A DNA stretch of 64,000 bases from an uncultured Anaerolineales bacterium. GTDB taxonomy: Bacteria; Chloroflexota; Anaerolineae; B4-G1; SLSP01. Under the pieces are notes generated by a model, which saw nothing but the letters and a program-made list of their open reading frames with translations, was not told the DNA's origin and made no database searches. Numbering within the stretch: position 1 is the first letter of the stretch; each line of letters begins with the position of its first letter. Below, one piece after another: positions 4,172 to 59,314 of the stretch. The stretch spans positions 17,786 to 81,785 of the forward strand of contig CAYTGR010000013.1 of the NCBI GenBank assembly GCA_964437445.1, read 5' to 3'. The translations under genes and the position numbers were made by a program.

Positions 4172-5669
4172 AAGAGTCCTCGTTCTCTGCTGGGTGATGG
4201 CCAGAGGCCAGTTCAATGACATAGCGTTGGTCAAATTTTTCATGGGGGATTTCTCCCATGAATCGGCCTTCGCATAACACAATCAGACGATCTGACATGC
4301 CCAGTAACTCTTCCATGTCGGAAGAAATCATCAAGATGGTTTTACCCTGATTGACCAGGTCTACCATCAAATGGTAGATTTCTTGCTTGGCGCCGACATC
4401 AATGCCCCGGGTCGGTTCGTCAAAGATCAAAATACTGGTATCGGCGGCCAGAGTTTTGGCCAGCACCACTTTCTGCTGATTCCCACCCGAAAGGTGAATG
4501 ACGCGCTGCTCCATAGAAGGGGCCCGGATGTTGAACTTCTCTATGTAGTAGCGTGCCACTTGCTTCACGGCGCGGGAATCCACCACGGAATAAGGGGCCA
4601 GCCGGTTAAAGATGGAAAGTGAAATGTTAAAGCGGATACTGGCATTTAAAAGGCACCCGTGATGCTTGCGATCCTCCGGGATAAGGCCGATCCCGCAAGC
4701 CAGGGCCTGATCCGGCGCCCGGATGTCCCGCTTTTTCCCGGCGACCCAGACCTCGCCGCCCTCTTTGGGGGCGGCCCCATAAATGAGACTCGCCAGCTCC
4801 GTCCGCCCGGAACCCACCAGTCCTGCTATGCCCAGAATTTCCCCCTGCCTCACGGCAAAAGAGATATCCTGGTCCCCCAAACCTGAAAGATGGCGTACTT
4901 CCAACACCGTCTCGCCGGGTGCCCCTGTGCGGCGGGGATAATACTCTTTCAACTCCCGGCCCACCATAAGATTGATCAACAGCTGCCGGTTTGCCTGGCT
5001 TGTCACTAACGTATCCACATAACGCCCGTCCCGCATCACCGTCACCCGGTCCGCAATTCTAAACAGCTCCTCCAACCGGTGCGAGATGTAAATGACAGTC
5101 ACTCCCCGTTCTTTGAGCCGGCCGATAATTTCAAACATCGTCTCCACTTCAGCCGCGGAAAGGGGCGCGCTGGGTTCATCCATGATCAGCAGCCGGGCAT
5201 TCTGCGAAATGGCCTTGGCGATTTCCACCAGCTGCTTTTGCGCCGGGCTGAGCTTGCGCACCGGCATGGCGGGATCCAGCGTGACATTCATCAGGGCAAA
5301 GATTTGGGCCGCGCGAGCCTGGACCTCTTGAGCCTGGACCAGCCAGCCCCGCTTTTCACCGAGAAAAACATTTTGGGCCACCGATAACGATTCCACCAGA
5401 CTGAATTCCTGATAGATTACCGCTATCCCCAGCGACCGGGCCAGAGCGGGCGTCATTTTGGCATATTCCTGAGAGTCCCAAACAATACTGCCCCTATCGG
5501 GCGCAATAGCGCCGGAAATGATTTTAATCAGCGTGGATTTCCCGGCTCCGTTTTCCCCCAGGAGGGCATGGACTTCGCCGCGCTCAAAACTCACCGAGAC
5601 ATCGTCCAGCGCTACTACACCTGGATAGGTCTTGGTCAGGTGCCTGACGGTTAAGATGGGTTGTTGCAT
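4158..5669 (-). CDS. Sugar ABC transporter ATP-binding protein, duplicated NBD (RbsA/MglA-like)
   Basis: 503 aa. Walker A GENGAGKST in the N-terminal half. Second NBD carries the LSGGNQQKV signature and a Walker B D/E. Confidence 0.9.
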   Translation of the reverse strand: MQQPILTVRHLTKTYPGVVALDDVSVSFERGEVHALLGENGAGKSTLIKIISGAIAPDRGSIVWDSQEYAKMTPALARSLGIAVIYQEFSLVESLSVAQNVFLGEKRGWLVQAQEVQARAAQIFALMNVTLDPAMPVRKLSPAQKQLVEIAKAISQNARLLIMDEPSAPLSAAEVETMFEIIGRLKERGVTVIYISHRLEELFRIADRVTVMRDGRYVDTLVTSQANRQLLINLMVGRELKEYYPRRTGAPGETVLEVRHLSGLGDQDISFAVRQGEILGIAGLVGSGRTELASLIYGAAPKEGGEVWVAGKKRDIRAPDQALACGIGLIPEDRKHHGCLLNASIRFNISLSIFNRLAPYSVVDSRAVKQVARYYIEKFNIRAPSMEQRVIHLSGGNQQKVVLAKTLAADTSILIFDEPTRGIDVGAKQEIYHLMVDLVNQGKTILMISSDMEELLGMSDRLIVLCEGRFMGEIPHEKFDQRYVIELASGHHPAENEDSYVQN

Positions 5670-5815
5670 GGATGAAACTCCATTGAATCCACAGGTTGTT
5701 GAGGGCTTGGAAGTTTACAAGGCGTGAAACGTTGAAATACTCGCTGATATTGGACGTTTCACGCCCTGGATTTCGCTGACTGCTTTTCGCCTTTTGGGGT
5801 TGCAGCGGCGGCGTT

Positions 5816-7024
5816 TTATTGCGGCGGGCCGGGCAGTACCAACGGTTGCGGGGCGGCCGTCGGCACCACAATGACCCCACTGCTTTCCGCCGGCACCGCC
5901 ATCAGCTGGCCGTCCACGGCTGTCACCAGGTCCAGCACATCCCAGATGATCTTGGGCACCTGTTCATCGTTTAGCATCTTGCCGGCATATTCTATCGTTC
6001 TGCCGACCAGGTCCCCGCCAAAGCGCACGGTACCACGGAACACGCCGTTCCCTTTGGAAGAATCCGCAATTGCGGGACCTTCGCCGCCGATCATGCCCAC
6101 CCCGAAAACTGCCACCTGGCTCAGGTCGCTGATGGCACTGAGGCCCGCGCCCTTGTTGTACTCATCCATGATGGCTTTGGAAGCGCCCATCGCTCCATCG
6201 CCGGCGTAAGCAATGACCAGTTTGACGTTAGGATTGGTAGTCAGGATATTCTGCATCGTCGTCTGGCCGGCCTGGAACATTTCAGCCTGTTGGATCTGGA
6301 CAATTTTGACCGCCGGGGTGTAAACCGGGTTGACTACCCGATCCGCCACCGACTTTCCGGGCAGATAGTTGCCGCTGGCATCCGAGACCGCCGTGCCGGT
6401 GGCATCAATATAGGCGCCGGTAGCATCTTTCAAGTAAGGCTCGCCGATCATCTGCAACCCGGCCGAACGGGCTACCGCTTCCTCGTTCAGGGTGGAGTTG
6501 AAAATTACCGTCTCCACGGAACCAGGAGCCGCCTCAGGATAGGTCATGTCTACCCATTGTTTAGCCATCAGTGCCGCATATTCACCGGCTAAGAACTGGT
6601 TCATTTTCATCACGGCGTCATAGGCGTTTGCATCGCCCGGATCGCCGCCGGCGAACAGGACCTTGACCCCGGCCTGCCGGGCAGCCACTAACTTGGGCAC
6701 CAGACTGGTTGGTTCCACGGCCATGATGAACAGAAACTTGACTTTCATGGCCGTGAAGTTTTCCACCTGGGTGGCCTGCGTGACCGCATTGCCATCGGCG
6801 CTGGCGACCTGGACATCATACTGCGCCCCAAAGGCATTCTTGAAGGCATCCTGGAACCCCAACATGAGGGGGTTATCCAGGGAGGGCAACGCCACCGCGA
6901 TGATCTCTTTTTGGGTGGGGGCCGATGTTGTGGGGGCTGTAGTCGTTGTGCCCGGTGTTGTTGAACAGGCTACCAGTCCCATGATCAACAACCCGATCAG
7001 AGCCACAAACTTGCTTGTCTTCAT
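5816..7024 (-). CDS. Sugar ABC transporter substrate-binding lipoprotein (type I periplasmic-binding fold)
   Basis: Lipobox LVAC after the signal peptide, followed by a Thr/Pro-rich linker (TTPGTTTTAPTTSAPT). Rest is a PBP fold, co-operonic with the ABC ATPase and permease. Confidence 0.75.
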   Translation of the reverse strand: MKTSKFVALIGLLIMGLVACSTTPGTTTTAPTTSAPTQKEIIAVALPSLDNPLMLGFQDAFKNAFGAQYDVQVASADGNAVTQATQVENFTAMKVKFLFIMAVEPTSLVPKLVAARQAGVKVLFAGGDPGDANAYDAVMKMNQFLAGEYAALMAKQWVDMTYPEAAPGSVETVIFNSTLNEEAVARSAGLQMIGEPYLKDATGAYIDATGTAVSDASGNYLPGKSVADRVVNPVYTPAVKIVQIQQAEMFQAGQTTMQNILTTNPNVKLVIAYAGDGAMGASKAIMDEYNKGAGLSAISDLSQVAVFGVGMIGGEGPAIADSSKGNGVFRGTVRFGGDLVGRTIEYAGKMLNDEQVPKIIWDVLDLVTAVDGQLMAVPAESSGVIVVPTAAPQPLVLPGPPQ

Positions 7025-7063
7025 TTCCTATCTCCTTAAGTTTTCCTTTGGCTGATCAACGAC

Positions 7064-8107
7064 TCACTTCAGATAACGATCCAGGAAGGCTAAAATCAGC
7101 TCCACATTAGCAGTTTCCCAGAATTCGGCGGTACCATGCCCTGCCCCTTCCAGAAACATTAGGGTGACCTTTTCTGAGCCAACGGCCGACACCAGCGCGT
7201 CGTAGAGCAACTGGCTTTGTTGCGGGGGGACATTGCAATCCGCCGTGCCATGCTGGATGAGGAAGGCAGCGTCATCAGCGCTGACATAAGTGATAGGATT
7301 GACCGCTTGCACGGCTTCCGGTACTGTCTGGATCGGCGCGCCCACCAGCAAGGATTCGGGAGAATCGGCAGCATCATGGGTGACCGGGCAACTGGTGCCG
7401 GCGAACTGGGCATCCATCTGCAAGAAATCGGTCGGCCCGTACTGATCTACCACGGCCTGCACACAGCTGGATTGATCAGCATACCCCAACTCCGCGCCCT
7501 CCAGAGCCGCCACGCCGCAGGAAGTGCCCAGTAAAGCGACCAGACTGCCGCCTGCCGAGCCTCCCCAGGCCCCGAATTTATCGGGGTTGAGCCGATACTG
7601 GGCCGCGTTAGCTCGCAAAAACCGAACGGCGGTTTTCAGATCCTGAATCTGAGCCGGGGCTAAGGCCTCGCTGCTCAGGCGGTAATTAACGCTGGCTACC
7701 GCATAGCCGGCGGCCAACAGCTGATCCACGCCGGCCTTGCCCATCGCATCCGCTTTATCACCCATCATAAAGCCGCCGCCATGTACCAGGATCACCAACG
7801 GGAAGGGGCCATCACCTTCCGGCAGGTACAAATCCAGTTTTTGGGTCGGCGAAAGGGATGCATACGCCAGGTCAGGGTATTGAGGTTGTGCCACCGTCGT
7901 CGGTAGCCCGCCCCCCATTCTGCCACCGGCAGGACGGCCACCCGCCGCACTGGTAGGCGTTGCGGTCGGCACGGTTGTCGCCGCCGGGATCTCCGGGGAC
8001 GGCGCGACCGTGGTCTGAACAGGCTCTTGGGTCGGAGTTGGCGTCCCGCAAGCCGCAAGCAACCAGACCAGTACCATTGCCAGGGTCAAAGCTAAAGACT
8101 GTCTCAT
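7064..8107 (-). CDS. Secreted lipoprotein esterase, alpha/beta-hydrolase paralog of 2266..3165
   Basis: Likely start MRQSLALTLAMVLVWLLAACG (lipobox) at 8107 with an AAGGAAA RBS. Pro/Thr linker, then HGGGFMMGDK, SVNYRLSSEAL, WGGSAGG and IQHG motifs collinear with the cytoplasmic paralog. Confidence 0.75.
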   Translation of the reverse strand: MRQSLALTLAMVLVWLLAACGTPTPTQEPVQTTVAPSPEIPAATTVPTATPTSAAGGRPAGGRMGGGLPTTVAQPQYPDLAYASLSPTQKLDLYLPEGDGPFPLVILVHGGGFMMGDKADAMGKAGVDQLLAAGYAVASVNYRLSSEALAPAQIQDLKTAVRFLRANAAQYRLNPDKFGAWGGSAGGSLVALLGTSCGVAALEGAELGYADQSSCVQAVVDQYGPTDFLQMDAQFAGTSCPVTHDAADSPESLLVGAPIQTVPEAVQAVNPITYVSADDAAFLIQHGTADCNVPPQQSQLLYDALVSAVGSEKVTLMFLEGAGHGTAEFWETANVELILAFLDRYLK

Positions 8108-24752: not shown

Positions 24753-24823
24753 GTGCCCCTGTTTTGCTGTTGCCGGCGCTCTCAACCGTATGATTTTTGC
24801 AGACTCTGTTCAGGAGGCTTAAC

Positions 24824-27286
24824 ATGCACTTGCACCGTTCCCGCATCGTGTGCGCCCTGGTGGGGCTGGCGCTCCTCGGCGCGTTCTGGCTGTCCGGCGT
24901 CCGGCCGGGCTCCGGGCCGGTCCAGATCGCTCGCGCTCAGACCACCGGCGTCACGCCCACCGGCCTCCAGGACTATGAGCGCTGGGTGGGCTCGCTGCAT
25001 TCCCACGTCGGCATGGACGGTGACGATGGCGCGAATGGCTCCACCGCCGCGCAGGCCTTCGCCTACGCCCGCAACCTGCCCCATCTCCAGTATTTCGCCG
25101 TCAGCCCCCACCTGCACGCTTCCCGCAGCGGCGACGCCACCCTCTGGTATGAAAACACCTACGATACCCTCCGGGCGCAGGCGGCCGGCGCTACTACCGC
25201 CGACTTTGTGGCCGTGGCCGGGGTGGAGGTCGGTACAATCTCCAAAGGCGGCCACTGGAATCTCTTCAATGCCCAGGACCTGGTGGGACAGGATCATCCC
25301 GACGGTGACTGGAACGACGCCGATGACTACTACGATCATCTTGCCGGGCTGGGGGCTGCCAGGGAGCTGGTCGCGGCGCAATTCAACCATCCCAACACCA
25401 CTGACTTTGGCAACCGCTACGACGCCAATGCCGCGCCCTACGTTGGCACGCTCGCCGTCTCCAGCGGGCCGGCCTTCTCTGCTGCTACCGATTTCGGCGA
25501 CAGTGGCAGCAATTACGAATCGGTCTGGGCGCATTTCCTGAGTCTGGGCTGGAAACTGGCCCCGGCGGCCGATCAGGACAATCACAACGCCACATGGGGC
25601 GCCTCGTCCAGTGAGTACACCGTCATCGTGCGGCCCAAAGGGACGGCGTTGACGCCGGCCAACGTCGTGCAGGGGCTGCGGGAGCACATGACCTACGCCA
25701 CCGAGGATGCCAACCTGCAATTAGGCTTCATCGCCAACGGTTGGAGCATGGGGCAGACGATCGGCGGCAGCCCAAACGTGGCCTTCGTCGTCTGGTGGAA
25801 CAATCCCTCGGCTACGATTTACAATCTCAACAACAATACGGCCCGCGCTGAGGCCGCCAGTGACGCCATTCAGAATATCTGGCTCTACAAAAACGGCTTT
25901 AGCACGCCGGTAGCGAGCTACCAGCCGCGGACGGTAAGCGGGGCGTGGGCAGTTACCGTCACCGCCACGGCGGGGGACTGGTTCGTGGTCAAATTCCAGG
26001 ACAGCAGTACATTAGCGACCACTGGCCGGACAACCGACCTGGCCTGGTCGGCCCCGGTCTGGTACGATCCGGCGCACGCCGACGTACCGCTGACCGTCAA
26101 CGGGGCTGCCCCCGTGCCGGTGGCCGGGGTCGCCCTGAGCGGGCCGCTCAGCGGGACCGTGGGGGCGACTTCAGCCTTTACCGCCACAGTTACGCCGTTC
26201 TCGGCAACGTTGCCCATCACTTACGTCTGGGAGGCAGTTGGACAGGCTCCGCTCACCCACACCGGCGGCTTGAGCGATACGGCAATGTTGGCCTGGGGTA
26301 TGCCGGGGACCTACCCGGTGACGGTCACCGCGCGCAACGCGGCCGCCAGCGTCCAGGCCAGCCAGATTATGGTGGTCGTAGCACCTCCGGCCTCCACCGC
26401 CGTCGCTGTTGAGGGTGTCGCTCTGAGCGGGCCGCTCAGCGGGACCGTGGGGGCGACTTCAGCCTTTACCGCCACAGTTACGCCGTTCTCGGCAACGTTG
26501 CCCATCACTTACGTCTGGGAGGCAGTTGGACAGGCTCCGCTCACCCACACCGGCGGCTTGAGCGATACGGCAATGTTGGCCTGGGGTATGCCGGGGACCT
26601 ACCCGGTGACGGTCACCGCGCGCAACGCGGCCGCCAGCGTCCAGGCCAGCCAGATTATGGTGGTCGTAGCACCTCCGGCCTCCACCGCCGTCGCTGTTGA
26701 GGGTGTTGCCCTGAGCGGGCCGCTCAGCGGGACCGTGGGAAGCATGGCGACCTTCACGGCCACGGTCACGCCGCTTTCAGCGACGTTGCCTATCACCTAT
26801 GTCTGGGCGGTGACCGGGCAGCCGCCAATCACCTGCACCAACGAGGGGTTGACCAGCACCGTCACGTTCCCCTGGCTGCTGGCCAGGACCCAGGAGGTCA
26901 CCGTGACCGCGGTCAATATCCAGGGGAGCGCTACCGCGACACAACCGGTTTCAGTGACGGAGCCGGTGGCCGGGGTGGCCGTAGCCGGGATGTGGCTCAG
27001 CGGTCCCGGCCAGGTGCTGGTCGGAACCGGGGCCACGTTCACTGCCACGGTCACGCCGCCCGACGCAACCGTGCCGCTCACGTACACCTGGCAGGCCACC
27101 GGGCAACTGCCGGTCACGCACACGCACGCGCAACTGAGTGACACCGTCGCCTGGACGTGGGACACCCCTGGTATCCAGACGTTCACCGTGACCGTCCAGA
27201 ATATCGGCGGGCCGGTGGTCCAGGTCGCCGCCGTGACCGTGACCGCGCACACGCTCTATGTGCCGCTGGTCCTGGCGCAGTGGTAG
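24824..27286 (+). CDS. Secreted PHP-domain (CehA/McbA-like metallo-phosphoesterase) protein with four PKD/Ig-like repeats and the LPLV tail
   Basis: Signal peptide. PHP motifs LHSHVGMDGDDG and PHLHAS. Four ~96-aa repeats (..SGPLSGTVGATSAFTATVTP..PITYVW..). C-terminus ...HTLYVPLVLAQW. Start at 24824 (AGGAGG RBS). Confidence 0.65.
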   Translation: MHLHRSRIVCALVGLALLGAFWLSGVRPGSGPVQIARAQTTGVTPTGLQDYERWVGSLHSHVGMDGDDGANGSTAAQAFAYARNLPHLQYFAVSPHLHASRSGDATLWYENTYDTLRAQAAGATTADFVAVAGVEVGTISKGGHWNLFNAQDLVGQDHPDGDWNDADDYYDHLAGLGAARELVAAQFNHPNTTDFGNRYDANAAPYVGTLAVSSGPAFSAATDFGDSGSNYESVWAHFLSLGWKLAPAADQDNHNATWGASSSEYTVIVRPKGTALTPANVVQGLREHMTYATEDANLQLGFIANGWSMGQTIGGSPNVAFVVWWNNPSATIYNLNNNTARAEAASDAIQNIWLYKNGFSTPVASYQPRTVSGAWAVTVTATAGDWFVVKFQDSSTLATTGRTTDLAWSAPVWYDPAHADVPLTVNGAAPVPVAGVALSGPLSGTVGATSAFTATVTPFSATLPITYVWEAVGQAPLTHTGGLSDTAMLAWGMPGTYPVTVTARNAAASVQASQIMVVVAPPASTAVAVEGVALSGPLSGTVGATSAFTATVTPFSATLPITYVWEAVGQAPLTHTGGLSDTAMLAWGMPGTYPVTVTARNAAASVQASQIMVVVAPPASTAVAVEGVALSGPLSGTVGSMATFTATVTPLSATLPITYVWAVTGQPPITCTNEGLTSTVTFPWLLARTQEVTVTAVNIQGSATATQPVSVTEPVAGVAVAGMWLSGPGQVLVGTGATFTATVTPPDATVPLTYTWQATGQLPVTHTHAQLSDTVAWTWDTPGIQTFTVTVQNIGGPVVQVAAVTVTAHTLYVPLVLAQW
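26129..26704 (+). repeat. Two perfect 288-bp tandem copies encoding PKD-like repeats 1 and 2, with more diverged copies downstream
   Basis: The 288-nt block from 26129 is repeated base-for-base from 26417. A third copy from about 26705 and a fourth near 27000 are diverged. In frame (96 aa). Confidence 0.85.
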
Positions 27287-28915: not shown

Positions 28916-29497
28916 CTATGTATCATGATTTAGCAGAGCGTACAAATACACATCCTGATAGCGTCCCTTCCAAAAGCCGAACTCGCGCCGTACTCCTTCC
29001 CGGTCAAAACCGAGTTTCTCCAGGACGCGGATGGAGCCGCCATTGTCGGGGATGACCAGCGCCTCAATGCGGTGGACAGGCATCAGGTCCTGTGGGCCGA
29101 AGCTGAAACGGATTATCGCCTGCAAGGCTTCGGTCATGAAGCCTTTGTGCCAGTGATCGGGATGGAGTTCGTAGCCGGCCTCCACAGTCTGCGTCCCGCG
29201 TCGCACGCTGAAATAGCCGCATGAACCAATCACAAGGGCCGGGTTTTCTCGCAGGGCAATCGCCCAGCGGAAGCCCATCTTGTCCTTGAACAGATTCATC
29301 CGGCTCTTGACACGTGCCTCGGCCTCGTTGATGGATTGCAGCGGCTCGGTTTCCAGCCACTCGTTGACATCCGCGCGGCGCAATATATCAAATACTGCCT
29401 GGGCGTCGTCCAGACTAAACTCACGCAGAATTAGTCTTTGAGTGGTCAATACGGGAAAAGTGCAGGGAGCTGGCGAGTTTTCGCTATCATGGTTCAT
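28916..29497 (-). CDS. GNAT N-acetyltransferase (RimJ/RimL-like, Acetyltransf_3)
   Basis: 193 aa. LILREFSLDDAQAVFDIL N-terminal signature and a GNAT core. Confidence 0.7.
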   Translation of the reverse strand: MNHDSENSPAPCTFPVLTTQRLILREFSLDDAQAVFDILRRADVNEWLETEPLQSINEAEARVKSRMNLFKDKMGFRWAIALRENPALVIGSCGYFSVRRGTQTVEAGYELHPDHWHKGFMTEALQAIIRFSFGPQDLMPVHRIEALVIPDNGGSIRVLEKLGFDREGVRREFGFWKGRYQDVYLYALLNHDT

Positions 29498-29779
29498 CGG
29501 ATTACCTCAGATAGGAGTTATCTGCAGGATTGTGAATTCATTATATCCGACTTTGCCGGGGGCGGCAATTGGCCGGGCGCCATCCGGGTGCGTTTCAGTT
29601 CTCGGGCCATTTTTGCCAGTCAAGGGGATTTTTTAAAAAGGGGAGATTTTGTGCGCGGGTTGAGCGGTCGGGCAGCGACGTTGAAGAGAGCCTGCGCGTG
29701 GCAGGCTCTCCTGGCCTTGCCGCTTCAGCCCCTGGATGGGGAAAGACGGCAATGGAAGTTCTGCTGGGATTGTTTTCCC

Positions 29780-31699
29780 TCAGGGTCGCTGCCCGCCGGG
29801 AAGACCTGGGTTGCCGCCTGGCCGGCCAGGGCCGCCCTCCACAGCCGAGCCGGCACTGGTGACCATGCTGGAAATCGTAAAACTGGTAATCTGAGTGCCG
29901 GCGGTATAGGTTCCACCAGAATATAGACCGTCGGTCACTGTACCGGTTGAACTTCCACCAGTGTAGACCAGATAGGTTGTCCCATTCTTGAGTTCAGGTG
30001 AGCACAACACGACTGACTGGTACACTTTGGTCGGTACAAAGGTCAGAATGCCCTCGCCATCTTGAGTTTCAATGTGGACCGGCGTCCCGGCAGCCTGCTG
30101 GCTGGCGAAATTATACAGCACTGAATACTGCGTGGAGGAAGCACTGGGGGCTTGGGCCATGCCGGCGCTGCCCGCAGCCACCAGAAGACCGCCGGTGACC
30201 TTAAACTCGCCGGTATAATCCAGGGGACCGTTCCCGTTGTCGGTGGGCCCGTTGACGATCACCGTCCCGCCGGTCATGGCAATGGGACCGTTGGCGTCAA
30301 TCCCGTCGCCGCCAGCATCAATGACGATGTAGCCTCCGTTGAGGTAAAGTGGATAGTTGCCGGCCGCCATGAAGTCGTTTTGCCCCGGGCGCTCGTTGAC
30401 TGAAGAGCCATCCACGCCGCCGGCGGTGTTGATCCCATCGTCGCTGGCCAGCAGGTGGATCTCCCCGCCATTGATCGTAATCATGGCGCTTTCAATCCCC
30501 TCATAGGATTGGGTAATGTTCAGCTGGCCGCCGCTGATAGTCAGGGTAGCATCGGAATGGAGGCCGTCATCGCCGGAGGTTAGCAGCAGTTCCCCGCCGC
30601 TTAGCGTTAAACTGCCGTTGGAATGGATCGCGTCATCTGCGGAATCAATGGTGATCATACCACCGGTAATGGCAATATCCACGCCGGCCTTCAGCCCTTT
30701 GGCACTGGCCGTAGTATCCGCGTCGCTGGCGCTGCTTTCCATGCCTTGATTGCCCCAGCCAGCTTGATGACTGACGCCGTTGCTGCTGCCGCCACCCGAG
30801 ACGAGGGCAAGAGTGCCGCTGCTGACCACCAGCCTGGTCGCGGCCTGCACCGCGTCCAGCCCGGCCGTGATGTTCAAAGTGCCGCCCTCAATGACAATGT
30901 ACCCCTTTTCAGCATCGTCCGTATTGTTGGCTTGCAGCCCGTCGCCCCCCGCGTTGACCGTGATTGTTCCGGCTTTGACCGCAATGGAGTCCCGGCCCTT
31001 GATACCATCGTTGGTGGCGTTGATGATGAGCGTGCCGCCGGTAATTTTCAGATCGTCTTTGCTGACAATGCCGTGGTTATAGGTGGCGTTGACGGTGAGT
31101 GCACCGTTGCCGTTAAAAGTGAGGTCATCATGGCTGAAAATCGCCGCATTGGGCTCATCTGATTCCGCGCTCTCCAAGCGATAAGCGCTCCCGTCGGCGA
31201 CATAGTTTTCAGTCCCGGCGGCCAGGGTGATGACCGTCTTCTCCGCATTGGCTACGTAAATAGGCGCGCTGGTGGAGCAGGTGATGTTCGCTCCATTCAG
31301 CACAAGCCTGACGGTTTCTTTGTCCTCTGTATTGACGACAATCTGCCCGTCATTCAAGACGCCGCTGAGGCTGTACCGGCCGGCCTTCGTGATGGTGACG
31401 ACCGTGCCGTTCACCGTGACGCCGTCCCCCTCAACGGTGACGGTATTGCCCTCCAACTTGATGTAGGACATACCGGAACTGTTGGTACTGGTATCCAGGT
31501 CCTCGCTTTCGTATTCTACGGTAATGGGGGCGTACACTACCGCCGCGTCCTGTTCCGTCTCGCCCGCGGGATTGGCTACGGTTCCGGCCTGGCCGGTCGC
31601 CGCCGCCAAAGTCCCCGCGCTGCCAACGGCAGCACCGGAACAAGCGGTGAAGGTCAAGATAAGAACGAAGAGCAATCCTAATGCTATGATTTTTTTCAT
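29780..31699 (-). CDS. Secreted lipoprotein with right-handed beta-helix repeats, Cthe_2159-like carbohydrate-binding family
   Basis: Lipobox signal MKKIIALGLLFVLILTFTACSG. Many ~22-aa repeats (G.DGI..NG.L.I.GG.L). C-terminal Gly/Pro-rich tail. Confidence 0.5.
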   Translation of the reverse strand: MKKIIALGLLFVLILTFTACSGAAVGSAGTLAAATGQAGTVANPAGETEQDAAVVYAPITVEYESEDLDTSTNSSGMSYIKLEGNTVTVEGDGVTVNGTVVTITKAGRYSLSGVLNDGQIVVNTEDKETVRLVLNGANITCSTSAPIYVANAEKTVITLAAGTENYVADGSAYRLESAESDEPNAAIFSHDDLTFNGNGALTVNATYNHGIVSKDDLKITGGTLIINATNDGIKGRDSIAVKAGTITVNAGGDGLQANNTDDAEKGYIVIEGGTLNITAGLDAVQAATRLVVSSGTLALVSGGGSSNGVSHQAGWGNQGMESSASDADTTASAKGLKAGVDIAITGGMITIDSADDAIHSNGSLTLSGGELLLTSGDDGLHSDATLTISGGQLNITQSYEGIESAMITINGGEIHLLASDDGINTAGGVDGSSVNERPGQNDFMAAGNYPLYLNGGYIVIDAGGDGIDANGPIAMTGGTVIVNGPTDNGNGPLDYTGEFKVTGGLLVAAGSAGMAQAPSASSTQYSVLYNFASQQAAGTPVHIETQDGEGILTFVPTKVYQSVVLCSPELKNGTTYLVYTGGSSTGTVTDGLYSGGTYTAGTQITSFTISSMVTSAGSAVEGGPGRPGGNPGLPGGQRP

Positions 31700-31743
31700 G
31701 TCACTTTATCCCCTTGATGGTTTGTGTAGTCACAGGCCCGGCG

Positions 31744-32400
31744 TTAATTTTCATCCAACCGCTGCGTGGAAAAAAGTCCGGTATAGTCCAGGGACGGTTC
31801 GGTGGAACGGACTACCACGACTTCGTCCTGCGGTTCAGTATAGGTGATTTTGATCTCCGCGACGTCGTGCAGAAAATCAATCTTCCCGATTTCGCAGCGG
31901 AGGATATCCAGCCCTGTCCGCTCGCGCAGGTCGGCGAGCAAGGACTGGTAGTGTTCCGGTTTGATCCACTCAATACGCTCATACGTAATGGATTTCTGGC
32001 TGACGTTGCGCAGACCCCATTCCTTCTCAATCAAAAGCAACATCGCTGCAATTGCCAGATCGGCAATGACCAGGCTGGCGTAAACTTCCTGCGCGATCAA
32101 CACCGCGTTGATGACCGGGAGCGCCAGCATCACGAACAGGTACGACATCTCGCGGATCGGGATGGGATCGGTGCGAAAGCGCAGGATTGTGAAGATGGCA
32201 AAGAGGCTGAGGCCCAACCCTATACTGAAATCTACGTCGCTGAGCAAACTGGTGATCAAGAAAGCCAGCGTGTTGAACGTCAGAAACATCAGGACATAGT
32301 TCTTATCGCGCCTGGCGGGAGCATAGATGTAGCGCACGATCAAAAGTGCTACCCCGCCGTTGAACAGAAAACTTAAGCCAAAGACCAGAAAATCGTCCAT
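31744..32400 (-). CDS. DUF4956-like small membrane protein, translationally coupled (TAATG) to the VTC gene
   Basis: Three or four TM helices then a soluble C-terminal domain. Start MDDFLVFGLS overlaps the VTC stop by 1 nt. Confidence 0.45.
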   Translation of the reverse strand: MDDFLVFGLSFLFNGGVALLIVRYIYAPARRDKNYVLMFLTFNTLAFLITSLLSDVDFSIGLGLSLFAIFTILRFRTDPIPIREMSYLFVMLALPVINAVLIAQEVYASLVIADLAIAAMLLLIEKEWGLRNVSQKSITYERIEWIKPEHYQSLLADLRERTGLDILRCEIGKIDFLHDVAEIKITYTEPQDEVVVVRSTEPSLDYTGLFSTQRLDEN

Positions 32401-33227
32401 TACTTGCTCTCCTGGATGATGCGATTGAGCCACACCTGTTGTGGCTTGAAATGGTTATGCTTGACCTGCGGCACGAGCAGGGAGACCCCCAGACAGTACT
32501 TGCTAAAACTCAGCGGCCGTATCCCCCATTGTCGCAGTTGCCCGATGAATTCGGACCGTAAAGCGTGAACTGATTGCTTGATCTCGGCGATGACGACGCC
32601 GGGGAGCGCCATTTCCGTTTGCCCGACGCGAAAGGAGAGGCCGATATCCAATGTCAGGCGTTCTGCCCGGTGCTTGCTCACCAACGTGATCCGCTGGAAG
32701 TGGCTCCAAAGTGCGGGGACTAAGCCGGCGGCGGGATAGGGGAAGACGGCAGCCAGGAAGTCGCTGCCGCGCCGGCTGATCTGGGGTGTGATCCCCGGAA
32801 TGGGCAGGCGTTCCTTGACGGTGACGTCCTGATTGGTTTTACGCTTCACCTCCAGGAACGCTAAGCCGGAGTCCGCATACGCTCGGGCGCGCACCTTGTA
32901 CCGTTCGCGCCGCCCGTTGTGATGCTGGTGATAGAGGGCATAATCTGGAGTATCAAAGTACAGGGTTTGGTAACGGTGTATCCGGCGCCCGTCAATATCC
33001 AGCACCTCGTAACCGTCGCCGAGCTGGGCGAGGGCACGGGCCAGTTGGCCCTCGCTCAGCACCATTTTCGTGTCAATGCGTCGCAGCAGCGCGACATCCT
33101 GCATCTCCGCCAGGCTGACGGGCGCAAAACCCGATAATGTGTGCGCCAACGACTGGCGCGCTAACGTGGTGGCCGGCGTTCTCGCTGCCGGCAGATAGGG
33201 TTCTTCATGTCGTATCTGGGTCAACAT
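32400..33227 (-). CDS. VTC-domain (CYTH-like, polyphosphate-polymerase-domain) protein
   Basis: 275 aa with charged beta-tunnel motifs (YQTLYFDTPDYALY, RYKVRARAY, LEVKRK) typical of the VTC/CYTH fold. Confidence 0.55.
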   Translation of the reverse strand: MLTQIRHEEPYLPAARTPATTLARQSLAHTLSGFAPVSLAEMQDVALLRRIDTKMVLSEGQLARALAQLGDGYEVLDIDGRRIHRYQTLYFDTPDYALYHQHHNGRRERYKVRARAYADSGLAFLEVKRKTNQDVTVKERLPIPGITPQISRRGSDFLAAVFPYPAAGLVPALWSHFQRITLVSKHRAERLTLDIGLSFRVGQTEMALPGVVIAEIKQSVHALRSEFIGQLRQWGIRPLSFSKYCLGVSLLVPQVKHNHFKPQQVWLNRIIQESK

Positions 33228-33509
33228 AGCTCTACTTTCCTTAATTTCCTTATTTCCTTTTTTCCTTAGCCTTCAGAATTTCCCGTACCTCCAAACTTTA
33301 TGTGCAGTTTACAACATTGATCTGAGAGCAAACCAAGAAAGAGCTGAGAGATAACTTAGAGTCCAGCTAAAAATTTTCCTGACGTGTGCTCTGTGGGCTT
33401 GCCCTACCGTCAGAGGAAAGCCAAAGCGGATCCAACCGGCGCTAAGGTAAATGCCTGATCCAGGACTGGCAGAAGTGACCTGAAAGTTGAAACGCATCTT
33501 GATTTTTGC

Positions 33510-33538
33510 TTGACAAGCCGTACAGCAACCCTATACTG
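33510..33538 (+). promoter_or_regulatory. Sigma70 promoter TTGACA-N17-TATACT for the 33571 gene
   Basis: Consensus -35, 17-nt spacer, -10 TATACT, about 30 nt upstream of the start. Confidence 0.55.
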
Positions 33539-33570
33539 GACCTCAGTAACTCATTTGAGGGAGATCACAC

Positions 33571-35802
33571 ATGGCGCTCCACAAACCCTGTTTACTCCTC
33601 GTGGCCTTGCTGTGCCTGTTGCCGGGCCTCAAGGCCGTGCCTTCGCCCCAGCCGGCGCTGGCGGTGCAGGAGATTTATACCGACGCGCTGGCAGCGGGGT
33701 GGAGCAATTGGTCCTGGGCCACAGTGAATTTGCAGGCCACCGCGCCGGTCCACTCGGGCAGCCGCAGCATTGCCGTGACCTGTAGCGCCTGGCAGGGACT
33801 TTATTTGCATTACCCTGAACTTGCCACGGCCGGCTTTACACATTTACGCTTTTTCATCCATGGCGGCAGCGCCGGTGGCCAGCAGCTCCACGTGTACGCG
33901 ACCTATCCGGTCAACGGCTCCGACCAGAATGGGCCGGCGGTCGCTGTGTCGCCGCCGGCGGCCAATACCTGGAGCGAAGTGCGCATTGCCCTCGCCGACC
34001 TGGGGGTGGCGAACGTCGCGCTGACCGGCCTGATCTGGCAGAATACGACCGGCGGCGCGCAGCCTACGTTTTACGTGGACGATATCGCCCTGGTGGCGGA
34101 CGAAAGCCCCGACGGTCCCACCCTGAGCGCCGGCTACCTGCGGCCGCGCGCGGTGCCCGCCGATGGGGGGACGCAAACCGTGGTCCGCGTCCGGGTCGGT
34201 GATCCCCAGGGCCTGTCTGACATCGCCAGCGTGACGTTGGACGGCAGCGCGCTGGGCCGGGGCGCGATCCCCTTGCGCGACGACGGCTGGAGCAACGACG
34301 GCGCGACGGGCGATGGTGTGTACGGGGCCGTGTTCACGGTCGCGCCGGGCACGGCCAGCGGCGAGCCCCAGCTGCTTGTCACCGCGCAAGACCAGGCCGG
34401 ACATCGCGCCAGTTTGCAATTGGGCGCGCTGGCCGTGCTGGCCTCGGCGGGCGGCCGGATTCCCTCGGCGTTGCCGCAGCGCCTGGGCTGGGGCTCCAAC
34501 GCCTGGAGTGAGACGCCCGGCCAGGACTGGCAGGTCAATAGCGGCGTCCCCTGGAACTACGTTTACCAGTACATCACCTACGACTGGTACGTGAACGGTT
34601 GGGGCGGCAACTTTGTCGGGCGCTTTGTGAACCAGGCCTGGAACAAGGGCTACGTCCCGCTGATATCGGTTTACATGATCCTGGAAGTGCCGCCCAACTG
34701 TGGCGAGAGCGCCACCTGTTACGCCGCCAAGTTGCAGAACTCCCAGACGGTGAGCACTTATCTGGCCGCACTGCAGGAAGCGGCCCGGCAGGCCCAGGGC
34801 CCGCATCCCGTCATCTTTCACCTGGAGCCTGATTTTTACGGCTACATGCAGCAATTGAGCAACAGCGCCGAGCGCCCGGCCGGCGTCCAGCCCGACGATC
34901 CCAGCTCCTACCCCGTGGCGTTGAACGTGGCCGGCTATCCCAACACCCTGGCCGGATTCGGGCGGCGCATGGTGGATCTGATCCACGCTACCGCGCCCAA
35001 TGCGCTGGTCGCGCCGGCCGCGAGCATGTGGGCGACCAACGGCGACCCGAACTCGGTTCCCGTCGCGCAAGTGACCAGCATGGGGCAACGCACGGCGGCC
35101 TTCCTGGAAGCGATGGGCGGGGCGCAGGCGGACCTGCTGGTGGTAGAGTGGAGCGACCGCGACGCGGGTAGCGGCCTGCGTCCCTGGTGGGACGATACGA
35201 ACCTCACCCTGCCGCGCCCCACACGGGCGATCTTGTGGGAGAATGCGCTCTCGGTCGCGGCGCACAAGCGGCTGATCTTGTGGCAAATGCCCGTCGGCAA
35301 CATGGCGTTGGATAACACCTGCGACCATTATCGCGATAACCGTGCGGCTTACGTGTTCCAGCACCCCCGTGATTTGGTGGATGCCGGGGTCTTGGCCGTG
35401 CTGTTCGGCGGCGGGGCCGAGTGCCAGACGCAGGTGACGACCGACGGCGGATTTGTCGCCGCGCAAGGCGCGATCGCGTATGCCCGCCCGCTGACGCCAA
35501 CAGGGCTTGCAGCGGGCCCGGTGGTCGGACCGCTGGTGCCTGTGCGCTGGGATGAGAACACCGAGCCGGACCTGTGGGGCTATCGGGTCAGCCAGCAACG
35601 GGCGCAGGGGGGAGCAGCTCTTGCCGTTGATGCCGGCCGGAAGAACGCGCGGATGCTTTTGCTTCCGCAGGCCGGCGACTGGCGCGTCAGCGTGGCGGCT
35701 TACGACGCCATGGGGCAGCTGGGGCCGGCCTCGGCCGTCATTACCGTCACAACCACTATCAACGCCCAACAGGTTTTCCTGCCCCTCGTTCAACGCCATT
35801 AG
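33571..35802 (+). CDS. Secreted multidomain protein: N-terminal CBM-like, Ig-like, central putative glycoside-hydrolase-like barrel, C-terminal Fn3-like; ends in the LPLV tail
   Basis: Signal peptide MALHKPCLLLVALLCLLPGLKA. Central region rich in W/Y (GWGSNAWSE..WNYVYQYITYDWYVNGWGGNF). C-terminus ...QQVFLPLVQRH. Enzyme family not identified. Confidence 0.4.
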   Translation: MALHKPCLLLVALLCLLPGLKAVPSPQPALAVQEIYTDALAAGWSNWSWATVNLQATAPVHSGSRSIAVTCSAWQGLYLHYPELATAGFTHLRFFIHGGSAGGQQLHVYATYPVNGSDQNGPAVAVSPPAANTWSEVRIALADLGVANVALTGLIWQNTTGGAQPTFYVDDIALVADESPDGPTLSAGYLRPRAVPADGGTQTVVRVRVGDPQGLSDIASVTLDGSALGRGAIPLRDDGWSNDGATGDGVYGAVFTVAPGTASGEPQLLVTAQDQAGHRASLQLGALAVLASAGGRIPSALPQRLGWGSNAWSETPGQDWQVNSGVPWNYVYQYITYDWYVNGWGGNFVGRFVNQAWNKGYVPLISVYMILEVPPNCGESATCYAAKLQNSQTVSTYLAALQEAARQAQGPHPVIFHLEPDFYGYMQQLSNSAERPAGVQPDDPSSYPVALNVAGYPNTLAGFGRRMVDLIHATAPNALVAPAASMWATNGDPNSVPVAQVTSMGQRTAAFLEAMGGAQADLLVVEWSDRDAGSGLRPWWDDTNLTLPRPTRAILWENALSVAAHKRLILWQMPVGNMALDNTCDHYRDNRAAYVFQHPRDLVDAGVLAVLFGGGAECQTQVTTDGGFVAAQGAIAYARPLTPTGLAAGPVVGPLVPVRWDENTEPDLWGYRVSQQRAQGGAALAVDAGRKNARMLLLPQAGDWRVSVAAYDAMGQLGPASAVITVTTTINAQQVFLPLVQRH

Positions 35803-35863
35803 CGGGATTGGGTTTTCCCCTCTCTATCATTACAGACAAACAGTCAAGGTCACGTACAAAATT

Positions 35864-35893
35864 CACAGAGCGGCGCTTGAGCGCCGCTCTGTG
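35864..35893 (+). terminator. Perfect 13-bp stem hairpin CACAGAGCGGCGC-TTGA-GCGCCGCTCTGTG after the 33571 gene (weak U tract)
   Basis: Perfect palindrome read directly, followed by TGTTGAAG. Confidence 0.5.
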
Positions 35894-35916
35894 TGTTGAA
35901 GCGCGGTATAAAGTAC

Positions 35917-35975
35917 TTGACAAAATTAAGTTGTATGTTAATATTATCAATATACGACTTGATATTATCAACATA
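35917..35975 (+). promoter_or_regulatory. Promoter TTGACA-N16-TAATAT with two direct repeats ATATTATCAA(T/C)ATA spaced 21 bp apart (candidate operator)
   Basis: AT-rich island immediately upstream of the DUF2089 HTH gene. The repeats overlap the -10 and +1 region. Confidence 0.5.
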
Positions 35976-35988
35976 AACCAGGGAGGTT

Positions 35989-36360
35989 GTGATGCATCCA
36001 GTTCCTACGGAATGTCCGGTCTGCCACGACGATTTATTAGTCACGCGGCTGGTTTGCCGGCGCTGCGGTACGGTGCTCAAAAACCGGTTTGAGCTGGACG
36101 CGCTTTCGCGTCTGATACCAGAGCAGCGCCATTTCGTGGAGGTGTTTCTCCGCTGTGAGGGGAAACTCAACTGCGTCCAGGACGCGCTGGGGATCTCTTA
36201 TCCCACCGTCCGCAGCCGGCTGGACGAAGTCATCCGGGCGTTGGGACCCCGGGCCCCGGAGCCGGCGGGCGCGCCCGCGTCACGTCAGGAGATCCTGGCG
36301 CGGCTGGCCCGCCAGGAGATCACCGCCGAAGAGGCCTTGACCCTGCTGGAAACTTTGTGA
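35989..36360 (+). CDS. DUF2089-type zinc-ribbon plus HTH protein
   Basis: CPVCHDDL..CRRCG zinc ribbon, then a sigma-70 region-4-like HTH (ISYPTVRSRLDEVIRAL). Confidence 0.6.
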   Translation: MMHPVPTECPVCHDDLLVTRLVCRRCGTVLKNRFELDALSRLIPEQRHFVEVFLRCEGKLNCVQDALGISYPTVRSRLDEVIRALGPRAPEPAGAPASRQEILARLARQEITAEEALTLLETL

Positions 36361-36374
36361 CGAAGCTGGCTTAA

Positions 36375-37634
36375 TTGAATCAAAAGGAGCAAAAGGAGAA
36401 GGAGATGTTTGACCAAACTGTAGCAACCGGGGCCGCGCCCCACATTGTGGTAGAAGAATGTTCAGGTAGCCTGGCCGTGCGGGGGACGGAAACCCGGCAA
36501 GTCCGTATCCGCATGTCGGGTGACGCCGAATCCAGCGCGCTGACCCAGGAAGGGGACGTCCTCACGTTCCGGGCGCCTGGAGATTGCCGTCTTACCTGCC
36601 CGCCTGGCACTATGCTGACCCTCAAAGCCGTGCGGGGGGACTTGCAGGTGCGCATGGTGCACGGGGCGATCACCGCAGGCCAGGTCAATGGTAGCGCCGA
36701 TTTGCGGGACGTCGGCTCGCTGGCCCTGGGACAGGTCTCTGGCGATTTGCGCGCGCGGGGTGTGGCCGGGGACGTGGTGGGACAAGGGGTGTCCGGCGAC
36801 GCCCGCGTCCGGGCGGTGGCCGGACAACTCACGCTGCACCAGGTCGGCGGCGACCTGCGGGCCGACGCTGTGCAGAAAGGGATCGCCGTGGAAGCTGTGA
36901 GCGGCGACGTGCGTTTAGGCCCGCCCTTTGCTCCGGGGGCTGCTTATCGCCTCAGCGCCGGCGGGGACCTGGTCGTCAGGCTGAATAGAGAGGCCAGCGT
37001 CCATTTTAAACTCCAGGCCAGGGGAAACGTTCAGGTGCGCGTCCCCAACCTGGCCCTGCAAGAGCAAGAGGGAGCGCTGGTAGGGGATTTAGGGACCGGC
37101 GAGGCGTTGCTGGAGGCCTCGGTCGGCGGGCGAGCCGTGCTCAAAGCGGGTGAGTTGGAGAGCGACGAGTTCCCTGAGTCCTACGATCTTGACCTGAGCG
37201 TCCTGGATGACCTTGGCCCGCTGGTTGAGGCGCGGGTCGCTGAGGCCATGGCTGACCTTAATCTGCGGCTGGAAAACGAGGGCTGGTTCATGGCCGATGA
37301 AGGCCGGTTGCGGCAGCGGGTGGAGCAGATTGCCGAACAGGCGGCCGAGCGCGCCCGTCAGGCCGCCGAACGGGAGGCCGAGCGGGCCCGCCGGGCGGCC
37401 GAACGGGAGGCCGAGCGGGCCCGTATCCAGGCGGAACAGGCTGAGCGGCGCTGGCAGCGGGCCAGTGGTCACCGGCCGGCCGCCCCGCCGACGCCACCGG
37501 CTCCTCCAGCTCCGCCGGCCTCTGCGACCGACACGATCACACGCGAGGAACGGCTGCGGGTGTTGCGGTTGGTGGAAGCGGGCCGGCTCACGCCCGAGGA
37601 GGCCTCCGATTTGATTGCAGCTCTGATGAGCTGA
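36375..37634 (+). CDS. DUF4097 (toast-rack/putative adhesin beta-strand repeat) protein with Ala/Glu/Arg coiled coil and C-terminal EERLRVLRLVEAGRLTPEEA motif
   Basis: Repeated V.GD.R motifs (VSGDLRARGVAGDVVGQGVSGDARVRAVAG), the AEREAERARRAAEREAERAR repeat, and a Pro-rich segment. Confidence 0.55.
   Translation: MNQKEQKEKEMFDQTVATGAAPHIVVEECSGSLAVRGTETRQVRIRMSGDAESSALTQEGDVLTFRAPGDCRLTCPPGTMLTLKAVRGDLQVRMVHGAITAGQVNGSADLRDVGSLALGQVSGDLRARGVAGDVVGQGVSGDARVRAVAGQLTLHQVGGDLRADAVQKGIAVEAVSGDVRLGPPFAPGAAYRLSAGGDLVVRLNREASVHFKLQARGNVQVRVPNLALQEQEGALVGDLGTGEALLEASVGGRAVLKAGELESDEFPESYDLDLSVLDDLGPLVEARVAEAMADLNLRLENEGWFMADEGRLRQRVEQIAEQAAERARQAAEREAERARRAAEREAERARIQAEQAERRWQRASGHRPAAPPTPPAPPAPPASATDTITREERLRVLRLVEAGRLTPEEASDLIAALMS

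Positions 37635-57250: not shown

Positions 57251-59314
<2,064 letters not shown>

Follow-up and report, generated by a model that had tools for sequence, protein, structure and literature searches.

A bacterial VTC–DUF4956–Cthe_2159 operon as a candidate unit for polyphosphate synthesis and transfer to the cell surface

In yeast, the VTC complex (Vtc4 with Vtc1/2/3; PDB 3G3Q, 3G3R, 7YTJ, and 8I6V) couples the synthesis of polyphosphate (polyP) to its translocation (PMC9911596). In Gram-positive bacteria, a gene set encoding CotH, a “poly-phosphate polymerase,” and a DUF4956 protein has been described as accessory to pel operons (Whitfield et al. 2020), and the NELoc-2 locus of Clostridium perfringens carries a VTC gene, a membrane protein of ~220 amino acids (aa) labeled “tubulin/FtsZ,” and CotH. 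Here we analyzed a related operon in a stretch of 64,000 nucleotides (nt) from an uncultured Anaerolineales bacterium of the phylum Chloroflexota (assembly GCA_964437445.1, contig CAYTGR010000013.1, positions 17,786 to 81,785), hereafter called the window. The operon encodes a VTC-domain protein, a DUF4956 membrane protein, and a beta-helix protein of the Cthe_2159 type that is predicted to be a lipoprotein. From its enzyme fold, its conserved linkage, and its predicted topology, this three-gene unit is a good candidate for a polyP producer that delivers its product to the cell surface. The fuller reading, in which the three proteins would serve polyP synthesis, membrane passage, and use or retention at the surface, we put at a probability of roughly 0.45.

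Comparison with the described systems places the window operon close to, and apart from, each of them. The window VTC protein shares with yeast Vtc4 the triphosphate-tunnel fold and the basic tunnel residue set, plus the equivalents of E426 and S457-K458, and in both systems a soluble cytosolic enzyme is accompanied by a membrane component. The two enzymes are about 16–17% identical, which is below phmmer detection, and the window protein, unlike the eukaryotic catalytic subunit, has no SPX domain and no C-terminal three-helix membrane domain. Its membrane partner is instead a separate DUF4956 protein with no detectable likeness to Vtc1, and the window and related modules include extracytoplasmic partner proteins, unlike the yeast complex. 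PPK1 and PPK2 would make the same product, but their fold is unrelated to VTC, their polyP is cytoplasmic, and they have no dedicated membrane or surface partners.

The pel-associated accessory module shares the VTC and DUF4956 genes and likewise adds a secreted third protein to the pair. That third protein is CotH, and the genes adjoin pelDEADAFG, whereas the window has the Cthe_2159 lipoprotein, and no CotH and no pel-type domains were found among the open reading frames (ORFs) annotated around the window operon. In Streptococcus intermedius, the accessory genes are SIR_1594, SIR_1593, and SIR_1592, for which no mechanism is given; strains deleted for DUF4956 or CotH aggregated less and had altered Pel levels, the phenotypes being weak (mBio 2025). 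The authors of that study place the trio at pel loci only (mBio 2025); we found it elsewhere as well, at loci without pel genes among the called or annotated neighbors. NELoc-2 resembles the module in gene order (VTC, a small membrane-protein gene of ~220 aa, CotH) and differs from the window in that the pair is duplicated around a resolvase, in its occurrence in a Firmicute pathogen, and in having no Cthe_2159 gene. The first-pass annotation had called the window operon a conserved but functionally undescribed module. Conservation stands, whereas “undescribed” applies only in part, as the VTC–DUF4956–CotH version is already in the literature. The module has thus been partly noticed earlier. 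Our literature search found no paper naming both DUF4956 and VTC and no description of the versions with Cthe_2159 or with a DUF2490 outer-membrane barrel.

All three domains that had been proposed from the sequence were recovered by profile hidden Markov models (HMMs) well above the curated thresholds. The VTC protein matched PF09359 with E = 6.7e-26 and 91.7 bits (cut-off 23) over profile positions 2–234 of 235, the membrane protein matched PF16316 with E = 1.7e-48 and 165 bits (cut-off 30.6), and the beta-helix protein matched PF14262 in two stretches with E = 3.9e-102 and 341 bits, far over its cut-off. NCBIfam contained no model for VTC or DUF4956. The ORFs and their junctions agree with the layout first drawn for the operon (Table 1): the VTC stop and the DUF4956 start share 1 nt in the sequence TAATG, and a gap of 44 nt separates the DUF4956 gene from the lipoprotein gene. 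Independent gene calls on public contigs from the same organism gave identical products of 275, 218, and 639 aa, and the names borne by the closest homologues also point to Anaerolineae, phylum Chloroflexota.

The VTC protein is basic (isoelectric point, pI, of 10) and has no signal peptide and no hydrophobic segment. An AlphaFold (AF2) model built on 79 homologues had a mean predicted local distance difference test score (pLDDT) of 89.8 and a predicted template modeling score (pTM) of 0.87. The top 12 Foldseek matches of this model were structures of Vtc4, Vtc3, and Vtc2, with E values from 2e-11 to 7e-9. The best among them, 3G3R, 3G3Q, and 8I6V (chain E), reached E values of about 1e-11 to 1e-10; these three, 7YTJ, and 9UMG had template modeling (TM) scores of about 0.56–0.58 at 16–17% identity. 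YgiF, CYTH-type cyclases, and triphosphatases ranked behind the Vtc4 matches. At the sequence level, phmmer with the VTC protein found no match in PDB, and a profile of 22 VTC homologues reached only E = 0.78 there, against Vtc2. Recognizing the kinship with Vtc4 thus took structure prediction. On the model, the VTC protein is a putative triphosphate-tunnel enzyme of the Vtc4 type and a putative polyP polymerase.

The tunnel residues point in the same direction. Window residues were mapped onto Vtc4 by HMM and pairwise alignments, using a Vtc4 sequence that is a 100% match to PDB 8I6V chain E; hhalign and hmmalign covered only the first half of Vtc4, and for the rest we relied on pairwise alignment and motifs. 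Window K54, R113, R115, K128, K138, R140, R179, E215, K217, S242, and K243 correspond in this mapping to Vtc4 K200, R264, R266, K281, K294, R296, R361, E426, K428, S457, and K458, respectively. R190 was equated with R373 by inspection of the motif only (ERLTLD/VRISLD), because hhalign and hmmalign stop after the first half of Vtc4. In Vtc4, these residues reportedly form part of the tunnel wall, and polymerization depends on them. All of the lysine, arginine, tyrosine, and other tunnel positions that were checked are kept except Y359, which is F177 in the window protein. The mapped columns are invariant or nearly so among the 79 VTC homologues, F177 being only nearly invariant.

The same structural comparison bears on another activity. 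YgiF, CYTH cyclases, and the thiamine and inorganic triphosphatases share the fold and are the next-best structural matches, and the VTC protein could accordingly be a tri- or polyphosphatase or another tunnel enzyme, such as a nucleotide cyclase or similar, whose activity gates or energizes a DUF4956 protein carrying something else, for example a cation or a glycan precursor. D52 in strand 1, whose Vtc4 counterpart is a threonine, sits where hydrolase-type tunnel enzymes have acidic metal ligands, and this suits such an activity. Nevertheless, the full-length best matches are Vtc4 structures, the complete basic tunnel set of Vtc4 is kept along with E426 and S457-K458, and the sole Pfam match is to VTC and not to CYTH. 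We therefore regard a non-polymerase as quite improbable. The analogy with the eukaryotic VTC system made in the first-pass annotation holds for the fold and the tunnel residues of the enzyme, but it does not extend to the membrane component, since DUF4956 has no detectable kinship to the eukaryotic VTC membrane domain.

Table 1. Coordinates of the operon, its surroundings in the window, and the comparison loci discussed in the text
Feature	Sequence	Position	Strand	Details
VTC-domain protein	window	32400-33227	-	275 aa; PF09359
DUF4956 membrane protein	window	31744-32400	-	218 aa; PF16316; ATG at 32400 within TAATG
Cthe_2159-type beta-helix protein, predicted lipoprotein	window	29780-31699	-	639 aa; PF14262
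Signal peptide and lipobox of the beta-helix protein, MKKIIALGLLFVLILTFTA-then-C	window	31640-31699	-	read from translation
21-nt tandem repeat	window	31394-31442		2.3 copies; 75% matches
Four tandem AAGGAAA units	window	33236-33267	-	period 8-9 nt; last unit stops 8 nt short of the VTC start codon
Divergent intergenic region between the operon and the secreted-protein gene	window	33228-33570	.	343 nt
Promoter-like site	window	33510-33537	+	
Divergent secreted-protein gene	window	33571-35802	+	743 aa
DUF2089 regulator gene, then DUF4097 gene	window	35989-37634	+	
Secreted protein with PKD repeats	window	24797-27286	+	829 aa
Membrane H+-pyrophosphatase gene	window	57251-59314	-	PF03030; E=7e-233
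DUF4956-DUF2490 fusion	L100	6001-7383		P0395; barrel part keeps its own signal peptide
Separate adjacent DUF4956 and DUF2490 genes, then Cthe_2159	L105	1950-3465		
Cthe_2159-CotH pair	L095	4556-7861		CotH gene domains: LTD, Fn3_assoc, CHB_HEX_C, CotH
Cthe_2159-CotH pair	L096	4553-7870		CotH gene domains: LTD, Fn3_assoc, CHB_HEX_C, CotH
DUF4956 gene, then VTC gene	L098 (Aminobacter pAM01)	5469-7721		
DUF4956 gene	L104	5001-5813		270 aa

Linkage was assessed by scanning one genome per species with the VTC alignment (546 relatives) and taking the best 80 of the 546 relatives' loci, 79 from Chloroflexota and 1 from Bacteroidota. Partners were detected with HMMs built iteratively from the window proteins and with a CotH seed. 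A DUF4956 gene lies directly downstream of VTC in 76 of the 80 loci; in most of the other four, the locus sits at the edge of a contig or the DUF4956 reading frame is disrupted, and where both flanks extend to at least 5 kb the figure is 40 of 40. The VTC stop overlaps the inferred DUF4956 start in 51 of 75 loci, and a gap of 0–30 nt is found in 19 more. A third partner occurs within 5 kb in 32 of the 40 full-flank loci, namely Cthe_2159 in 14, CotH in 10, and both in 8. This count is a lower bound because the CotH of the Bacteroidota locus (L086), a divergent protein with a type IX secretion system (T9SS) sorting tail, was missed by the CotH HMM. Co-occurrence in other genomes, which had been set beforehand as the point on which the module would stand or fall, is thus widespread in the linkage set, and it extends to further phyla.

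The topology predicted for the trio, with a cytoplasmic enzyme, a membrane protein, and a secreted or lipid-anchored partner, is borne out across the relatives by the signal-peptide counts. Signal peptides were predicted for 27 of 30 CotH partners and for 1 of 81 VTC proteins, while 39 of the 44 Cthe_2159 proteins at related loci show a hydrophobic stretch at the N-terminus and 32 of 44 a lipobox in a pattern scan. In 26 of the 80 loci, a co-oriented OmpR-type regulator and BaeS-like kinase lie within 5 kb. These neighboring two-component systems matched neither PhoBR nor any other equivalog, and a link to phosphate starvation therefore cannot be claimed. Genes for NAGPA phosphodiester glycosidases stand in one gene string with Cthe_2159, VTC, DUF4956, and a response regulator–histidine kinase (RR-HK) pair in five Chloroflexota loci (L049, L067, L068, L075, and L081), which hints at sugar-phosphodiester chemistry. 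Two high-frequency “families” that emerged from the clustering of neighbors turned out to be ORFs on the strand opposite VTC and DUF4956, and we set them aside.

Outside these phyla, the core pair turns up with various third partners, in Deinococcus and Alphaproteobacteria as well as on contigs without an assigned source. On a Deinococcus plasmid, the order is CotH, VTC, DUF4956, with a 1-nt overlap; Aminobacter plasmids carry DUF4956, VTC, and a phytase-like esterase family protein; and a Pseudoalteromonas plasmid carries an LTD protein, a VTC remnant, DUF4956, and a porin. Among the metagenomic contigs, L100 has Cthe_2159 and VTC followed by an in-frame fusion of DUF4956 with a DUF2490 outer-membrane barrel and by LytS/LytTR, and L105 has VTC, DUF4956, DUF2490, a small ORF, and Cthe_2159. 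On contig L102, VTC is followed by a DUF4956-CotH fusion and three more CotH genes. The DUF2490 barrels of L100 and L105 imply an outer membrane in the source bacteria, and the DUF4956-DUF2490 arrangement seems to be a form of the module that serves bacteria having such a membrane. As a separate observation, the reversed order on Aminobacter pAM01 is shared by 8 related plasmids, and the gene after VTC there is annotated as “esterase-like activity of phytase family protein.”

Judged from the protein sequences, the invariant part of the module consists of a Vtc4-like enzyme, predicted to be cytoplasmic, and a polytopic membrane protein whose translation is coupled to that of the enzyme, and the third partner is predicted to be extracytoplasmic in each phylum examined, whether CotH, Cthe_2159, LTD, a phytase-like protein, or an outer-membrane barrel. 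That the three genes are functionally unrelated neighbors brought together by chance deserves practically no credence, because the arrangement has been kept at 80 species-level loci and in several phyla, and because codons overlap and genes of the module occur as fusions.

The DUF4956 protein was modeled by AF2 with moderate confidence (pLDDT 71) as five helices (residues 2–26, 33–53, 58–75, 82–103, and 107–127) and a small beta-alpha-beta-beta C-terminal domain (residues 134–188). Among 72 homologues, conservation is strongest in the loop that joins helices 3 and 4, LR(Y/F)RTDPIPxRE, in which R74, R76, P81, and R83 are invariant. By the positive-inside rule, this arginine-rich loop and the C-terminal domain would be on the cytoplasmic side. 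When a DUF4956 profile was run against 1.84 billion cluster representatives, 1,935 clusters reached E ≤ 1e-3 and 1,156 clusters E ≤ 1e-10, counted at 50% identity, indicating a family of moderate size. The DUF4956-DUF2490 fusion forms a cluster of 36 members, all 460 aa long. The VTC-DUF4956 and DUF4956-CotH fusions are one singleton each and weigh little, because they may be frameshift artefacts.

The overall layout of DUF4956 resembles that of MgtC, which has five helices and a C-terminal ACT-like domain, and the authors of the S. intermedius study, who propose that polyP remains cytoplasmic, call the streptococcal homologue MgtC-like and assign it an ACT domain (mBio 2025). In such a scheme, VTC would be an alternative to PPK1 in the cytoplasm, DUF4956 a tether or regulator with MgtC-like helices and an ACT-like sensor, and the surface proteins merely co-regulated genes of the envelope or of phosphate stress. 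The C-terminal domain of the window protein does have weak ACT-like structural matches (E > 0.1, from the moderate-confidence model), and the two-component systems adjacent to 26 of the 80 loci would fit a stress regulon. Nonetheless, the Pfam MgtC model failed to hit DUF4956 at a threshold as loose as E ≤ 10, and Foldseek of the model against PDB returned nothing significant, whether for MgtC or for the Vtc1 membrane chains and other chains of the VTC complex. Moreover, the extracytoplasmic third partner recurs in every phylum examined, including outer-membrane barrels fused or adjacent to DUF4956, and the translational coupling suggests a stoichiometric complex over regulation. Purely intracellular synthesis consequently appears unlikely to us.

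The beta-helix protein begins with the sequence MKKIIALGLLFVLILTFTAC and contains the lipobox MKKIIALGLLFVLILTFTA-C20, found by a pattern scan and not by a trained predictor. The mature protein is strongly acidic, with a pI of 4.1 and 65 Asp+Glu against 22 Lys+Arg. Residues 86–304 are homologous to the solved Cthe_2159 structure (4PEU/4PHB) with E = 3.9e-51, and the homology is clear over the beta-helix core. The Clostridium thermocellum protein is shorter (~290–313 aa) and is encoded after CotH, whereas the window protein, with 639 aa and a lipobox, is encoded after VTC and DUF4956. According to its original description, Cthe_2159 binds cellulose and polygalacturonic acid and is similar to PL9 lyases (Close et al. 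2014); binding of Ca2+ and of cellulose or polygalacturonate is known for the C. thermocellum protein only. A short tandem repeat of 21 nt was noted within the N-terminal part of the window gene (Table 1).

The genomic setting of the founding Cthe_2159 gene is informative. As seen for a 99%-identical protein and for the Acetivibrio clariflavus orthologue, the gene lies 24–51 nt after a large secreted CotH gene, and the A. clariflavus pair lies within an exopolysaccharide cluster. CotH and Cthe_2159 thus form a partnership of their own. Because of this neighborhood, a “cellulose-binding” or plant-cell-wall role may not be the native role of the family.

This partnership raises the possibility of extracellular phosphorylation, in which VTC-DUF4956 exports polyP or another phosphoanhydride donor mainly as fuel for extracytoplasmic enzymes, in surroundings poor in ATP, and CotH, and perhaps Cthe_2159, phosphorylate surface glycans or proteins with it. 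The window operon would then be a CotH-less version acting on a glycan. The replacement of CotH by Cthe_2159, or their joint presence, beside the core pair is consistent with this scheme, as are the position of the founding Cthe_2159 gene next to CotH, the exopolysaccharide cluster of A. clariflavus, the effect of the Gram-positive module on Pel level from beside pel operons, and the occurrence of NAGPA phosphodiester glycosidases, GH114, and the phytase-like protein among the neighbors. The binding of acidic polysaccharide described for Cthe_2159 (Close et al. 2014) fits as well. On the other hand, no CotH was found among the ORFs annotated around the window operon itself, no catalytic activity is known for Cthe_2159, no phosphorylated glycans are known from these organisms, and the use of polyP as a donor by CotH is hypothetical. 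We consider extracellular phosphorylation doubtful as the main function of the module.

Returning to synthesis, passage, and surface handling of polyP, we propose that the three genes form one operon encoding an envelope-spanning unit. Judging from fold and residues, the cytoplasmic VTC enzyme would take the gamma-phosphate of ATP and build a polyP chain within its basic tunnel. The DUF4956 protein would dock the enzyme and deliver the chain as it grows, or a phosphoryl product made from it, to the outer side of the membrane, a step suggested by the obligate linkage, the translational coupling, and the invariant arginine loop; it would thereby play the role of the unrelated Vtc1/3/4 membrane helices in yeast. 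The acidic, probably Ca2+-loaded Cthe_2159 lipoprotein may then receive, hold, or process the product at the cell surface, as the third partner is variable yet always extracytoplasmic. In sister loci, a secreted CotH kinase would take the surface role, alone or together with Cthe_2159, and in the two contigs with an outer-membrane-barrel partner the barrel would have been added for crossing the second membrane. The proposed bacterial route would parallel the coupled synthesis and translocation of yeast, with a non-homologous membrane component.

Several observations weigh against this proposal. The fold family of the enzyme also holds hydrolases and cyclases, and sequence cannot separate a polymerase from a polyphosphatase. 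The DUF4956 model is only of moderate confidence and has no significant structural match, which makes the channel role a prediction, and the singleton VTC-DUF4956 fusion, if real, would place the DUF4956 N-terminus in the cytoplasm, in conflict with the charge-based five-helix topology. Direct binding of polyP by a beta-helix protein with a pI of 4.1 would need bridging cations. With respect to gene content, 8 of the 40 full-flank loci have the core pair without a recognized surface partner, and one DUF4956 gene (L104) follows an RR-HK pair with no VTC within 5 kb. Modules of the Cthe_2159 type are known from genes and models alone, and deletion of the VTC gene in S. intermedius, unlike deletion of DUF4956 or CotH, had no reported aggregation phenotype (mBio 2025). 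As far as sequence analysis reaches, the interpretation offered in the first-pass annotation is supported, with polyP synthesis and export as its inferred part.

Bacterial polyP is generally attributed to PPK1 and PPK2 only, working intracellularly. With a widespread Vtc4-like enzyme that goes with a membrane protein, and usually with secreted partners as well, bacteria would possess a synthase-translocase route like that of eukaryotes. In its most general form, VTC-DUF4956 would be a bacterial polyP synthase-exporter and a third, PPK-independent polyP route, whose product feeds or powers chemistry outside the cytoplasmic membrane; at this breadth the proposal is a speculative one, and we think it improbable. 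Under it, secreted CotH kinases would take polyP as phosphoryl donor, Cthe_2159 beta-helices would capture polyP or transfer it onto surface polymers, and DUF2490 barrels and porins would carry it over the second membrane.

A preprint of August 2026 reports ~100 uM extracellular polyP in the Bacillus cereus group, independent of PPK1 and PPK2, which is a precedent in favor of the proposed unit, and states that a VTC4 homologue is absent (PMC13484657). Because a plain sequence search with the bacterial VTC protein misses yeast Vtc4, bacterial VTC-domain proteins would probably escape a BLAST-type search begun with Vtc4. If the synthase-exporter proposal is true, it provides a candidate source of PPK-independent extracellular polyP in this group, and Cthe_2159 would be reassigned from a “cellulose binder” to a handler of phosphate polymers. 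Such a route would make three matters testable: the source of PPK-independent extracellular polyP, the phosphoryl donor of secreted CotH, and the real role of Cthe_2159. The module family also has ties to loci for biofilm (Pel) and for virulence.

Upstream of the VTC start, the first-pass annotation had pointed out four AAGGAAA repeats resembling Shine-Dalgarno sequences. The four copies are real (Tandem Repeats Finder: period 8, 4.0 copies), but the array is not part of the conserved module and varies by lineage. AAGGAAA has 9 matches in the window against 4.7 expected, and 4 of the 9 fall inside the 32 nt of the array. A contig of a co-occurring strain (L088) has three copies against the four of the window, an 87%-identical relative (L093, L094) has a single AAGGGAA only, and two or more copies were found in 0 of 86 related loci. 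A conserved regulatory element was thus ruled out, as the array has no counterpart in other related loci. We read it as a lineage-specific, slippage-prone expansion of the ribosome-binding region that could modulate expression, and the difference of four against three copies between co-occurring strains is possibly slipped-strand variation at the ribosome-binding site. A search of positions 29000–36500 against Rfam gave nothing credible, with no family at E ≤ 1 in the divergent intergenic region, and a promoter and terminator scan gave no convincing promoter or terminator for the operon. The intergenic region presumably holds the operon promoter; the sole strong promoter-like site points toward the divergent gene (Table 1).

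That divergent gene encodes a secreted protein without a Pfam match, whose first 140 aa are similar to an endoglucanase-associated module (PDB 7T7Y, E = 1e-9). It adjoins the operon in strain-level contigs and not in a 58%-identical relative. Past it lie genes for a DUF2089 zinc-ribbon/helix-turn-helix regulator and a DUF4097 “toastrack” protein with a SHOCT-like tail. The membrane H+-pyrophosphatase gene of the window, which encodes a further membrane enzyme acting on phosphoanhydrides, is 24 kb from the operon, with no evidence of linkage. On contig L104, the neighbors of the DUF4956 gene carry PSCyt and PSD1 domains. Lastly, the secreted protein with PKD repeats has an N-terminal region that is PHP-like by eye, and two of its ~95-aa repeats are identical in sequence, indicating a very recent tandem duplication.

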